NCBI GenBank assembly: GCA_024278335.1
Contig: JAJRTJ010000001.1
Span: forward strand, 26,481-90,480
Reading direction: 5' to 3'
Source: an archaeon
GTDB taxonomy: Archaea > Nanobdellota > Nanobdellia > Pacearchaeales > GW2011-AR1
Length of the DNA stretch: 64,000 bases
In this document: piece after piece, positions 2,692 through 57,421 of the stretch
How the letters are laid out: every line of letters begins with the position of its first letter
How positions within the stretch are numbered: position 1 is the first letter of the stretch
Program-made: the position numbers and the translations under genes
Notes under the pieces: model-generated
Databases searched by the model: none
Told to the model about the DNA's origin: nothing
What the model saw: only the letters and a program-made list of their open reading frames with translations

Positions 2692-3363
2692 ATGAACCTC
2701 TTAAAATTAGGGATTGATGATGCTGGCAGAGGACCAGTTATTGGGCCGATGATTCTTGCAGGATGTTTATTAACAAAAGAGGCAGAAAAAGAATTAGAAA
2801 AATTAGGAGTAAAAGACAGCAAGCAATTGACTCCAAAAAGAAGGGAATTTCTTGCAGGCGAAATAAAAAAAAGAGCTACTGCTTATGAAATCCAAAAAGT
2901 CTTTCCTGACGAGATAGATTCCTCTCAAGAAAAAGGGACAAAGCTCAATGAACTTGAAGCAATGAAAATAGCTAAAATAATCAACAAATTAAACAATCAA
3001 AAACAAGACATAAAAGTTATAGTGGACTGCCCCTCTGTAAGCATAGTCAAGTGGGAGGCATTTTTAAAACAGCATATTAAAAATCTCTCAACTTTGATAA
3101 TTTCCTGCGAGCACAAGGCAGATGCAAAACATATCTCAGTTTCTGCAGCATCTATTTTAGCTAAATCAATGAGAGAAAAAGAAATGAATAAAATAAAGCA
3201 AGAATATGGAGAAGAAGTCGGTTCTGGATACACCTCTGACCCATTAACTCAAAAATTCATTAAAAAATATGCAGAAAAATATGCAAATAAGGGAATTTTT
3301 AGAAAATGCTGGGAGACTTATAAAAATGCTTTGCATGAAAAAGCACAAACTACTTTATCTTAA
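2692..3363 (+). CDS. rnhB: Ribonuclease HII
   Basis: N-terminal GIDDAGRGPVIGPM and ...ASILAK...GSGYTSDP motifs of RNase HII; 223 aa. Confidence 0.9.
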   Translation: MNLLKLGIDDAGRGPVIGPMILAGCLLTKEAEKELEKLGVKDSKQLTPKRREFLAGEIKKRATAYEIQKVFPDEIDSSQEKGTKLNELEAMKIAKIINKLNNQKQDIKVIVDCPSVSIVKWEAFLKQHIKNLSTLIISCEHKADAKHISVSAASILAKSMREKEMNKIKQEYGEEVGSGYTSDPLTQKFIKKYAEKYANKGIFRKCWETYKNALHEKAQTTLS

Positions 3364-3394: not shown

Positions 3395-6253
3395 ATGGTT
3401 TATATTAAAAAATTGGTGATGCACGGATTTAAGAGTTTTGTTAAAAAAACAGAGCTTCCGTTTACTCCAGGAATCAATGTAATTCTTGGTCCAAATGGTT
3501 CAGGAAAATCAAATGTTTCTGATGCGCTTTGTTTTGTTTTGGGAAGATTAAGCATAAAATCCTTAAGAGCTGCAAAAGCAAAAAACCTGATTTTTATGGG
3601 TTCAAAAACAGCAGGACCTGCAAAAGAAGCTTCAGTAGAAATTATTTTTGATAATTCTGATAAAGTTTTTTCAATTGATTCAAAAGAAATTTCTTTAAAG
3701 AGGATTGTTAAAAGAAATGGCTCCAGTATTTACAAAATAAACAACCAGACAAAAACAAGGCAGGAAGTTCTTTCTCTTTTAGCTCAGGCAGGACTAGACC
3801 CAAATGGGTTTAATATTATTCTTCAGGGGGAAATCCAAAATTTTGTCAAGATGCAGACAGAAGAAAGAAGAAAAATTATTGAAGAAGTTGCAGGAATTTC
3901 AATCTATGAAATGAGAAAGGCAAAATCCCTAAAAGAACTTGAGAAAACAGAGGCAAGGTTAAAAGAAGTAACAACTGTTTTAAAGGAAAGAACTGCTTTT
4001 TTAAATAATCTTGAAAAAGAAAGGCAACAAGCTTTGAAATTCAAGAAATTAGAAAAAGATGTTAAAGTATTCAAAAAAAGTATTCTTTCTTATGATTTAA
4101 TAAAAAAACAAAAGCAAGTAGAAAAAGTCCAATCTGCAATAAAAGAGAATCAGGAAAAAATTGCTAAACTTAAAAAGAAAATACTTGCCCTTAAATCAGA
4201 AATATCTGAATCTGAAGCAAAGATTGTCTCAGTTAATTCTAAAATGCAAAAAGAAACTGGTCTTCAGCAAGAACAACTTAATAAAGAAATGGCAAATATC
4301 CGGGCAGATTTAGCAGGGCTTACAGTTAAGAAAGAGGGTAATGAAAGAAAACTCTCTTCCGTTGAAAAGCAAAAAAGGGATTTGTTTGAATCAATTCAGG
4401 AAATTGAAAAAACTCTCAAAGAGCTTCAAAGAGAATCTCCTTCTATTGAAAAAAATCAAAAGCAAATTGAGGCAAAAAAACTTGAATTAGAATTTCTTGA
4501 AAAAGAAAGAAAAAAATTTTACATGACTCGTTCAGAATTAAAAACTCTTGAATCGCGGATTCAGGATAAAAAGAATCTGCTTCAAAATTACATCAATGAG
4601 GCAGATTTTTTACTAAAGCAAATAAATTCCCTTTCTCTTGACCTTTTTGATTCTCGCTCTACTCCAGAAATACTCAATAAATTAAAGACTATTTTATCTG
4701 AGAAAAGAAAGCAATTAGAAGAGCTTAATTCAAGAGAAAGGGAGCTGGAAAAAATTTCTCATACAAATGAATATGAAATTGAAAATCAAAAAAAGATTAT
4801 TGAGCAAATCTCTAAGATAGATATCTGCCCTATGTGCAAGAGCAAGATAACTCAAGAACATGTTTGTTCTATAAAAACTGAAATATCTCCAAAATTAGAA
4901 AAATTAGAAAAAGAAATTTCTGATGCAGATGCAGAATTAACTGCACTTTATAATAAAAGAGAGATATTGAAAGAAGACATAGAGCAATTGTCAAACGAGA
5001 TTTCCAGAAGAGAATCTGATATTTTAAAAATTGCAAATATTGAGGGAAAAAAACAGCAGATTAAGGTCCTGCAGGAAAAAATAGACCAGATAAAAGAGGA
5101 GCTGGATTCTTTGGCTAAAAAAAGAAAAAGTCTTGAAGAAAGTTTTGATGAAAATTCTAATATTGAGCATAGATATGAAACATTGCAGTTAGAAGTGCAG
5201 GAGATTTCTCTTAGGACAAAGGAAAATGTAACTTCAGAGATTTCATTTAAGCAAAAAGAATTAGAACGAGCCAAAATATCTTTAAAGCAATTAAAAAGAG
5301 AAAAAGAAGATATTCAAGAAGAATTAAAAGGGCTGGAAAACAGTATAAAAGAAAACCAAAATCTTCTTGAAGCAAAAAGACAGCAAGAAGCAGAACTGAC
5401 TAAAAAATATGAAAAATTAATAAGAGAAAGAGAGGATATTCAAAAACAGATTAGAGAAAAAGAAATTCTTTTGACTGAAAAAAATAATCATGTTTCAAAT
5501 ATTGAAGCAGAGATAAATAACTTGAATGTTGAAAAAGCAAGGCATAGTGCAGAGTTAGAAGCATTAGAAATGGAGCTTTTAGAATTTCCAAACATTGAAA
5601 TTATTAAGGCAAGCAGAGATGTTTTAATGAAGAAGCTCGCTAAAACCCAGGATATTCTTTCAAAAATAGGGTCTGTAAATATGAGAGCTCTTGAGACTTA
5701 CGACGAAGTGAAAGAAGAATATGATAAAATTCAGGAAAAAGTAGAAATTATTGAAAAAGAAAAACAAGGAATTTTTAAGATTATTCATGAAATTGATGTA
5801 AAAAAGAAAAAAGCCTTTCTTTCTACACTTGCTGACCTCAATGAAATTTTCTCTCGGAATTTTGCACAAATTTCAACCAAAGGCACGGTTTCTCTTGAAA
5901 TTGAAAACAAAAAACACCCTTTTGAAGCAGGGGTCAACATTATTGTAAAAACAGGGCATGGAAAATATTTTGATGTAACCTCTCTTTCAGGCGGAGAGCA
6001 GACAATGGTTGCACTCTCTTTAATTTTTGCAATTCAAGAATTAAAACCATATTACTTTTATATTTTAGATGAAATAGATGCAGCACTTGATAAAAGAAAT
6101 TCAAATCGCCTTGCAGGATTATTAAATAAATACATGGAAAAAGGGCAGTATATAATTATCACACACAATGATGAGATAATCTCAAATGCAACTAATCTCT
6201 ATGGAGTTTCAATGCATGACGGGATTTCTAAGGTAGTTAGTTTGAAAATATGA
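3395..6253 (+). CDS. smc: SMC-family chromosome-organisation ATPase with a central CxxC (zinc-hook-like) motif and no recognisable hinge
   Basis: SMC-type head: FKSF...GPNGSGKSNVSDALCFVLG (Walker A), ILQGEIQNF (Q-loop), LSGGEQTMVALSLIFAIQ (signature) and YILDEIDAALD (Walker B/D-loop). Long heptad-rich K/E/L arms. CPMC lies at aa 478-481 of 952 (nt 4826-4837). Confidence 0.85.
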   Translation: MVYIKKLVMHGFKSFVKKTELPFTPGINVILGPNGSGKSNVSDALCFVLGRLSIKSLRAAKAKNLIFMGSKTAGPAKEASVEIIFDNSDKVFSIDSKEISLKRIVKRNGSSIYKINNQTKTRQEVLSLLAQAGLDPNGFNIILQGEIQNFVKMQTEERRKIIEEVAGISIYEMRKAKSLKELEKTEARLKEVTTVLKERTAFLNNLEKERQQALKFKKLEKDVKVFKKSILSYDLIKKQKQVEKVQSAIKENQEKIAKLKKKILALKSEISESEAKIVSVNSKMQKETGLQQEQLNKEMANIRADLAGLTVKKEGNERKLSSVEKQKRDLFESIQEIEKTLKELQRESPSIEKNQKQIEAKKLELEFLEKERKKFYMTRSELKTLESRIQDKKNLLQNYINEADFLLKQINSLSLDLFDSRSTPEILNKLKTILSEKRKQLEELNSRERELEKISHTNEYEIENQKKIIEQISKIDICPMCKSKITQEHVCSIKTEISPKLEKLEKEISDADAELTALYNKREILKEDIEQLSNEISRRESDILKIANIEGKKQQIKVLQEKIDQIKEELDSLAKKRKSLEESFDENSNIEHRYETLQLEVQEISLRTKENVTSEISFKQKELERAKISLKQLKREKEDIQEELKGLENSIKENQNLLEAKRQQEAELTKKYEKLIREREDIQKQIREKEILLTEKNNHVSNIEAEINNLNVEKARHSAELEALEMELLEFPNIEIIKASRDVLMKKLAKTQDILSKIGSVNMRALETYDEVKEEYDKIQEKVEIIEKEKQGIFKIIHEIDVKKKKAFLSTLADLNEIFSRNFAQISTKGTVSLEIENKKHPFEAGVNIIVKTGHGKYFDVTSLSGGEQTMVALSLIFAIQELKPYYFYILDEIDAALDKRNSNRLAGLLNKYMEKGQYIIITHNDEIISNATNLYGVSMHDGISKVVSLKI

Positions 6254-25960: not shown

Positions 25961-26079
25961 TGGCCCCGATGGGATTTGAACCCACGACACCTGGATTGCT
26001 TTGAGACATGTCTCAATGCAGGTGAGACGAATGTCAAGCCTAAAAGTCCAGTGCTCTAACCAGGCTGAGCTACGGAGCC
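25961..26079 (-). tRNA. tRNA-Lys (anticodon UUU) with a ~44-nt intron at 37/38
   Basis: Hand fold: GGCTCCG/CGGGGCC+A, D arm GCTC-AGCCTGGTTA-GAGC, anticodon stem CTGGA/TCCAG, loop CTTTTA|intron|A. A BHB-like helix CTTT/AAAG is flanked by 3-nt bulges. T arm GTGGG-TTCAAAT-CCCAT. A TATA-like ATATAAATA lies ~-33..-25. Confidence 0.9.
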
Positions 26080-56596: not shown

Positions 56597-57421
56597 ATGG
56601 AAAAAGAGGTTAAACATACTTCCCCTTCTGTAAATCAAGAGCAAGTTCATGACCTTTTATTTGGAAGAGAGCTCGGTTGGCAGGAAATGATTTATGATTT
56701 AATTAATACAGAGCAACTTGACCCTTGGGACATAAACATTACTCTATTAACAGATAAATATCTTGAAAAAATAGAACAGCTTGAAAAAGCAGATTTTTTT
56801 GTTTCCAGCAAAGTTCTCTTAGCGGCGTCGCTTCTTTTGAGAATTAAATCAGAGATTCTTTTAAACCGCTTTATTAAATCAATAGACGAGATACTCTTTG
56901 GAAAAGAGCAAGAGCCTAAAAAAACTTTTGAAAAGCTTGAACTTGAAGGGGAACTTCCAGAGCTTGTTCCAAAAAGCCCAATGCCTCGTTTTAAAAAAGT
57001 TACATTAGAAGAATTAATGGAAGCTTTAAATAAGGCAATTATCACAGAAAACAGGAGAATTAAAAAAGAAATCATAAACAAAAATGCTCTTCGGGAATCA
57101 GCTATTTCTTTGCCCAAGAAAACAATTAATATCAAAGATAAAATAAGGGAAATTCATCAAAAACTTTTAAATCACTTTGAATCAAATAATACAAAAAAAA
57201 TTTCCTACACTGAATTTATTGGAGAAGATAAAGAACAAAGAATTCTTGCATTTTATCCCCTGCTTCAGTTAGAGAATAATAATAAAATATGGCTTGACCA
57301 GCCAGAGCATTTTGAAGAAATAGATATCTGGCTTAAAAAAATATTTTTAAAGCATAATGAAGACCCTTTTGCTGATTTAAAAGAAGAGCTTGAAGAATTA
57401 GAACTTGAAAAAACTAAATAA
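56597..57421 (+). CDS. scpA: Segregation and condensation protein A (kleisin)
   Basis: ...MIYDLINTEQLDPWDINITLLTDKYLEKIEQL...FFVSSKVLLAASLLLRIKSEILL, typical of the ScpA N-terminus; 274 aa. Confidence 0.75.
   Translation: MEKEVKHTSPSVNQEQVHDLLFGRELGWQEMIYDLINTEQLDPWDINITLLTDKYLEKIEQLEKADFFVSSKVLLAASLLLRIKSEILLNRFIKSIDEILFGKEQEPKKTFEKLELEGELPELVPKSPMPRFKKVTLEELMEALNKAIITENRRIKKEIINKNALRESAISLPKKTINIKDKIREIHQKLLNHFESNNTKKISYTEFIGEDKEQRILAFYPLLQLENNNKIWLDQPEHFEEIDIWLKKIFLKHNEDPFADLKEELEELELEKTK

Follow-up and report, generated by a model that had tools for sequence, protein, structure and literature searches.

A hinge-less archaeal SMC protein with a putative Rad50-type zinc hook at the apex of its coiled coil

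The window analysed here, a stretch of 64,000 nucleotides (32% G+C) from contig JAJRTJ010000001.1 of an archaeon of the order Pacearchaeales, carries an smc gene, which encodes a 952-residue protein of the SMC (structural maintenance of chromosomes) type, and scpA, which encodes a kleisin (Table 1). The source is a metagenome-assembled genome (MAG) of 575 kb in 4 contigs, 83% complete, and smc is its sole SMC gene. An earlier note on this DNA, made from the sequence without database searches, had described the protein as an SMC-type ATPase lacking the hinge and carrying a CxxC motif at the middle of its coiled coil. The results below support the view that the gene encodes the orthologous SMC of its archaeal order, with a replaced apex.

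Table 1. Coordinates of the smc gene, of the parts of its product, and of the genes for partner and Rad50-type proteins (positions in the window unless a second or third contig, C2 or C3, is given)
Feature	Position	Strand	Remarks
smc gene	3395..6253	+	952 aa, stop codon included; matches to Pfam SMC_N and SMC_prok_A/B
ATPase head, N-terminal half (aa 1-167)	3395..3895	+	sequence; strands and helices in the AlphaFold2 (AF2) model
Walker A GPNGSGKS (aa 32-39)	3488-3511	+	within the N-terminal head half
Ascending coiled-coil arm (aa 168-474)	3896..4816	+	AF2 model; helix breaks 212-219, 345-354, 416-423
Apex loop (aa 475-486, IDICPMCKSKIT)	4817..4852	+	between helices in the AF2 model; conserved core reaches H489
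CPMC, putative zinc-hook motif (aa 478-481)	4826-4837	+	midpoint of the protein is residue 476
Descending coiled-coil arm (aa 487-826)	4853..5872	+	AF2 model; breaks 587-589, 606-610, 729-740
ATPase head, C-terminal half (aa 827-952)	5873..6250	+	sequence; Smc head fragments
Signature LSGGE (aa 864-868)	5984-5998	+	within the C-terminal head half
Walker B YILDEID (aa 889-895)	6059-6079	+	within the C-terminal head half
scpA, kleisin (274 aa)	56597..57421	+	Pfam SMC_ScpA PF02616, E 1.6e-12, 48 bits, above cut-off
scpB	C2:143306-143743		123 bits
Mre11-Rad50 operon	C3:16481-19769		Mre11-type phosphoesterase (408 aa), directly followed by Rad50 (686 aa)

The smc gene, its heads and its partners

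The reading frame of smc is intact, and the head strings on which the earlier note had relied (FKSF, GPNGSGKSNVSDALCFVLG, LSGGEQTMVALSLIFAIQ and YILDEIDAALD) are all present in its translation. The Pfam model SMC_N covers residues 3-945 (1.3e-53). Among the NCBIfam models, SMC_prok_A gives 531.6 bits as against 133.3 bits at most for Rad50, whose models score 70-133 bits with cut-offs of 700-1087. In a sequence search of the PDB, the heads of Pyrococcus Smc are matched at 2.3e-99 and those of Rad50 at about 1e-15; the N-terminal half of the head aligns with residues 1-199 or more of the Pyrococcus Smc head, and the C-terminal half matches the Smc fragments 3kta_B and 1xew_Y at about 3e-31. An AF2 monomer model, built from an alignment of 45 sequences (predicted local distance difference test, pLDDT, 79), was compared with known structures by Foldseek and has a template modelling (TM) score of 0.85-0.90 to 5XNS and 4I99 over the head, the whole-model comparison being driven by the heads and carrying no information on the apex. 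The heads are thus those of an SMC protein and not of a Rad50, as the earlier note had claimed, and the head-only tree described below agrees.

Concerning the partners, the earlier note had reported ScpA but neither ScpB nor Mre11. This is correct for the window only, since scpB lies on a second contig and an Mre11-Rad50 operon on a third. The Rad50 encoded there has its own CPTC hook at about residue 349; it is short for an archaeal Rad50, and its hook, CPTCLQDVD..YK.N, is conserved across the order. The neighbours of smc are the gene for RNase HII and unrelated genes, with no adjacent Mre11, and neither a second canonical smc nor a stray hinge was found in the genome. Because a separate Mre11-Rad50 operon exists, the 952-residue protein is not the Rad50 of the cell, an identity that is ruled out by this operon together with the SMC-type heads. 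It is also very improbable that the protein is a Rad50 paralogue, or belongs to a separate family such as ASRP/ClsN (ASRP, archaea-specific SMC-related proteins), and serves repair or compartmentalisation. Such a reading can point to the hook, to the Rad50 scores given above and to a weak match to the ASRP model (NF045487, 121.9 bits), but the latter is restricted to the coiled coil (residues 300-655) and falls far under the cut-off of 300, so that membership in ASRP was rejected. Moreover, sequence, structure and phylogeny all assign the heads to the SMC type, the genuine Mre11-Rad50 operon lies elsewhere, and the ScpA and ScpB of this genome would have no SMC partner other than this protein.

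The apex of the coiled coil

The Pfam hinge model (SMC_hinge, PF06470) has no match in the 952-residue protein and none in the whole 575 kb genome (best E 0.6). When the protein was aligned to a profile of its class, built from 19 SMCs that have a hinge, residues 1-474 fell on profile positions 1-477 and residues 494-952 on positions 701-1164. The intervening positions 478-700, about 223 residues that comprise the hinge and adjoining coil, are without counterpart, and about 19 residues stand in their place. The two arms, of about 305 residues each, are nearly full length relative to those of hinge-bearing SMCs. In the AF2 model, helices 424-474 and 487-586 are joined by a 12-residue loop; a hinge-like fold was looked for in the middle region, and no globular domain is present there. 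The hinge is absent from this protein and its coiled coil is continuous, in agreement with the earlier note. The breaks in the two modelled arms lie at similar distances from the apex (128.5 versus 127 residues, and 262.5 versus 253.5), a mirrored pattern as expected for an antiparallel arm that has both an elbow and a joint.

The motif CPMC lies within two residues of the midpoint of the protein and inside the apex loop of the model, where the earlier note had placed it. The protein has only four cysteines (46, 478, 481 and 491), so that a CxxC at the midpoint is unlikely to be there by chance; from the cysteine frequency, we estimate that one would fall as near as about 10 residues to the midpoint in roughly 3-4 of 10,000 cases. 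C478, P479, C481, T486 and H489 are invariant among 118 close relatives, and K482 is nearly so. In the 45-sequence set, which goes down to 37% identity, C478, P479 and C481 are still invariant; taken over both sets, K482 and T486 are nearly so. CPxC is likewise constant in every hook-type representative or locus checked, and in every hook-type sequence checked it sits at 0.475-0.506 of the chain length. The consensus around it reads D-[IV]-C-P-x-C-K-x-K-[IV]-T-x-E-[HY].

The full-length protein gives a sub-threshold match to Pfam Rad50_zn_hook (PF04423) at residues 464-508, and the same model is matched singly by 26 of 31 diverse apex segments of 94 residues (best 1.3e-7). When a profile of the apex was searched against all PDB sequences, the top three matches were Rad50 hooks (1L8D at 5.9e-9, 6ZFF at 3.2e-8 and human 5GOX at 3.1e-4), and the alignment sets CPlCkrkitkeh opposite CPVCGRELTDEH of Pyrococcus furiosus. 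A control profile from which the 20-residue core had been deleted matched generic coiled coils only, with no Rad50 entry listed; the hook core, not coiled-coil composition, is thus the source of the signal, and a compositional artefact behind the PDB hook matches is ruled out. The same apex profile aligns in register with the hooks of the order's own Rad50s. Judged by sequence, the apex is a Rad50-type hook.

Distribution in the order and hookless relatives

Of the 401 genomes covered in the class, 359 have an SMC hinge. The other 42 consist of those of the order of the window plus 12 others, and these 12 were rejected as further hook-type lineages (nine have no SMC match and three only fragments at contig ends). 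The order, which belongs to the Pacearchaeota-type Nanoarchaeia within DPANN, was sampled with 151 genomes from nine families and 85 genera. A hinge-less SMC homologue is present in 148 of them, single-contig genomes included, along with ScpA (146/151), Rad50 (148/151) and ScpB (59/61). A hinge-less SMC thus defines the whole order, and the sister orders keep the hinge.

A similarity search over 1.8 billion cluster representatives divided the matches cleanly. Complete hook-type representatives, at 40-64% identity, have 946-1023 residues (about 1480 with an intein); CPxC is present and the hinge absent in every one. Below them come hinge-bearing sequences of 1078-1194 residues with at most 41% identity. 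We regard as negligible the probability that the hinge was merely lost through misassembly of the metagenomic bin or an error in gene calling. The draft state of this 4-contig, 83%-complete MAG would allow for it, but the same architecture and length recur in more than 120 independent database clusters, in 45 public records and in the 148 genomes just mentioned, some of them in a single contig.

Several sequences met in these searches deserve mention. Four hook-type smc genes (P0114, P0120, P0123 and P0131) encode about 1480-1516 residues owing to an insert, and the same long class occurs in genomes G520, G494, G472, G476, G484, G424, G489, G507, G426, G438 and G439. In these long genes the match to the query begins at residue 36-38, which places the insert within the Walker A P-loop, and precomputed Pfam matches there are to intein and LAGLIDADG domains. 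Hinge-bearing relatives of about 1680-1706 residues probably have the same kind of insert. Two archaeal hook-type smc genes with 57-64% identity, L108 (DATJPO010000036.1) and L123 (DAIQOR010000001.1), are labelled ‘Candidatus Omnitrophota bacterium’ and ‘bacterium’, respectively, and their bins are probably mislabelled or contaminated. P0198 and P0221, classed as having no hinge by our own hidden Markov model, show degenerate hinge-like sequence by eye and were not counted as extra examples. Finally, P0212, P0236, P0242 and P0264, all from outside the order, are SMC-like proteins of 726-838 residues with no hinge match and no CxxC, which may correspond to the hinge-less bacterial SMCs of PMC12153180.

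Some members of the order have lost even the hook motif or lack it altogether. SMCs of 781-809 residues with neither CxxC nor hinge occur in families f119, f120 and f121 and in some genera of f2 (for example L055-L061 and L127-L131; representatives P0141, P0143, P0145 and P0148). The apparent length of 898 residues for L055 is spurious, owing to a stretch of N in its contig, and this sequence belongs to the same class of about 800 residues. The hookless form is the only SMC in its genomes, one of which is a single contig; no hinge is found there, and Rad50, ScpA and ScpB are kept. Their apical part is about 170 residues shorter than that of the hook-type f2 proteins, with each arm reduced by about 75-85 residues relative to the hook-type forms. 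An AF2 model of an 801-residue member is a plain helical hairpin with a turn at 405-407 (pLDDT 77, from a shallow alignment of 14 sequences). Natural SMC arms have length modes of 238 and 341 residues and vary in steps of roughly 100 residues (PMC5344682), and the shortening of the hookless arms would be in the range of the steps between these modes. Hookless f2 sequences also read FDEIDPALD in the Walker B region, with proline in place of the alanine of hook- and hinge-type proteins (FDEIDAALD).

A quick maximum-likelihood tree of the heads alone (N-terminal 205 and C-terminal 215 residues, 126 rows, LG+G4, no outgroup) unites hook-type and hookless proteins in one clade (Shimodaira-Hasegawa-like approximate likelihood ratio test, SH-aLRT, 100), which branches from within the hinge-bearing SMCs of the class and is not placed with Rad50. 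Since the hinge-less proteins form a single clade, the hinge seems to have gone in a single event, at the base of the order or close to it. The alternative suggestion of the earlier note, a distinct SMC-related lineage, finds no support here, as the protein is the orthologous SMC of one order and groups within the SMCs of its class. Hookless forms stand in at least three places within the hinge-less clade, f119 being sister to all others; the approximately unbiased (AU) test speaks against a single hookless clade (p = 0.026), for a group chosen after the tree had been seen. Either the order went from hinge to hook to none, or f119 never bore a hook, both being possible.

The hookless SMCs also bear on the role of the cysteines. 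CPxC might serve within one chain, as a structural or redox motif or to stabilise the turn, with dimers held by contacts between arms and by ScpA bridging. That sole SMCs of about 800 residues keep ScpA and ScpB with no hook indicates that an apical covalent-like link is dispensable in the order, as this explanation needs. We nevertheless consider it improbable, as a tetrahedral zinc site cannot be filled by the two cysteines of a single chain, the third cysteine in the vicinity (491) shows no conservation, the residue equivalent to H489 is tyrosine in f2, and C-P-x-C is absolutely invariant at the exact apex, as in Rad50.

Beside smc, the gene for RNase HII (window 2692-3363, +; PF01351, 5.8e-47) ends 32 nt upstream, and this rnhB-smc adjacency is kept in most relatives, in several families of the order. 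Elsewhere in the window, a 197-residue stand-alone GGDEF-domain protein is encoded at 1722-2315 (+; PF00990, 6.4e-41), with a weak likeness to the Cas10 palm. Diguanylate-cyclase-type domains are unusual in archaea. A 119-nt tRNA at 25961-26079 (-), recognised by Rfam and unreported by ARAGORN, presumably contains an intron.

Proposed origin and comparison with known systems

We consider it probable, with good confidence, that the protein is the single orthologous Smc of an Smc-ScpA-ScpB complex in which the hinge was replaced by a Rad50-type zinc hook in the ancestor of the order. According to this proposal, the hinge and its adjoining coil (about 223 residues) would have been swapped for a Rad50-type hook of about 19 residues, the arms being retained at essentially full length. 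Each chain would fold back into an arm of about 305 residues, and the CPxC cysteine pairs of two chains would jointly hold one Zn2+ and thereby form a constitutive apical dimer. ScpA would bridge the two heads and ScpB would bind ScpA, after which the ATPase cycle would work on DNA as in canonical Smc-ScpAB. In Rad50, a single Zn2+ is shared by the CxxC motifs of two chains (bioRxiv 10.1101/2020.06.24.160820); by analogy we infer zinc binding, dimerisation through the hook and a chromosome-organising function. The SMC/kleisin complex dimerising by a zinc hook that the earlier note had envisaged is thereby supported as regards the heads, the presence of ScpA and ScpB and the profile of the apex, the zinc itself being expected by analogy.

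A number of observations weigh against this interpretation. The protein falls under the NCBIfam equivalog cut-offs for SMC (531.6 versus 729.4 bits for TIGR02169, and 527.6 versus 567.35 for TIGR02168), its matches being split into two stretches on either side of the absent hinge; the scores are low because the hinge is missing. The roles given to zinc and to the hook in dimerisation are deduced from Rad50. As the hookless lineages keep ScpA and ScpB, the hook is not indispensable in the order, and these relatives make it less certain that dimerisation depends on the hook alone. Lastly, the recognisable likeness to Rad50 is confined to about 15-20 residues, which leaves room for convergence, and the hooks of the order's own Rad50s are no closer to the SMC hook than that of P. 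furiosus.

By convergence, a CPxC turn would have arisen de novo after loss of the hinge and would have the same function with another origin. We hold this to be unlikely, though it deserves serious consideration: only about 19 residues lie outside the SMC-homologous arms, the motif flanking CPxC differs in the order's own Rad50 hooks, and the basal family f119 is hookless, so that a path from hinge to bare apex to hook is possible. However, the likeness runs past CPxC into K/R-x-x-[ILV]-[TD]-x-E-[HY], as in the P. furiosus hook aligned above, and the single-segment matches to Rad50_zn_hook, whose signal depends on the core, speak against it. Being specific beyond CPxC, this likeness favours an origin by recombination, in which a hook segment of Rad50 was captured. 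The order's Rad50 and that of P. furiosus score similarly against the SMC-apex profile, and we therefore name no donor.

The hookless relatives suggest a further, tentative scenario, to which we give somewhat less than an even chance, namely a stepwise stripping of the apex: the hinge would have given way to a Rad50-derived hook on full arms, and this, more than once, to a bare shortened hairpin, with ScpA and ScpB always kept. If true, a working Smc-ScpAB needs no contact of a hinge with DNA, no hinge gate and no stable apical dimer link, and the arms would have shortened in a discrete jump close to the spacing of the 341- and 238-residue modes (PMC5344682).

The hinge is treated as a hallmark of SMC proteins and, besides dimerising, has been held to bind DNA, to signal to the heads and possibly to form a gate through which DNA enters. 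A hook swap fixed over long evolution, order-wide, in a sole SMC with its partners intact supports constitutive apical dimerisation as the core job of the hinge in Smc-ScpAB. The small hook-type and hookless variants of one clade also provide natural material for tests of hinge-free loop extrusion, for cryo-EM and for single-molecule work. As to annotation, hook-type SMCs that fall under the equivalog cut-offs run the risk of being taken for Rad50. Full-text literature searches, subscription-only journals being outside their scope, turned up no account of an SMC that naturally bears a zinc hook; within the searchable literature, the swap of hook for hinge in an SMC is reported only as a laboratory construct. 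New here are the occurrence of hookless and hook-type forms in one clade and the definition of the bounds of the replaced segment.

Among natural systems, a hinge-less SMC has been reported from marine Actinobacteria, described as having no CxxC (Sussfeld et al. 2025, PMC12153180). The hinge has likewise been lost there, but in the absence of a CxxC the closer analogue is the hookless archaeal form of about 800 residues. The archaeal ASRP proteins (ClsN/coalescin, Sph1/2; Yoshinaga et al. 2022, PMC9389158) belong to the SMC superfamily of ATPases and bear a zinc-hook motif where an SMC has its hinge, but they are a separate family with about 600 residues and divergent heads, whereas the window protein has 952 residues and bona fide SMC heads. 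With the Rad50/SbcC hook (PF04423; 1L8D, 6ZFF, 5GOX) the protein shares a CPxC at an antiparallel apex, followed by a basic residue and [ILV]-[TD]-x-E-[HY], and differs in its SMC-type heads and in having no adjacent Mre11. With canonical Smc (TIGR02169/TIGR02168; Pyrococcus PDB 5XEI, 5XNS and 4I99; Bacillus subtilis) it shares the head motifs and fold, arms that align nearly to the hinge boundary, the presence of ScpA and ScpB and the single copy; canonical Smc has about 1160 residues and a hinge, and the window protein has a 12-residue CPxC apex loop.

The nearest counterpart is an engineered one. In B. subtilis Smc(Zh), the P. furiosus Rad50 hook functionally replaces the hinge with normal arm alignment (Burmann et al. 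2017, PMC5344682; Soh et al., bioRxiv 10.1101/2020.06.24.160820), a listed construct being smc(1-480, Pf Rad50 zinc hook, 691-1186) (PMC5344682), and further engineered SMC chimeras are described in PMC6969161. The window SMC differs from it in being natural, ancient and order-wide, in a hook segment much shorter than the grafted P. furiosus hook and coil, and in being known from its sequence. Both combine SMC heads and arms with a Rad50-type hook, and their junctions lie near each other (1-477/701-1164 in the profile versus 1-480/691-1186 in the construct).

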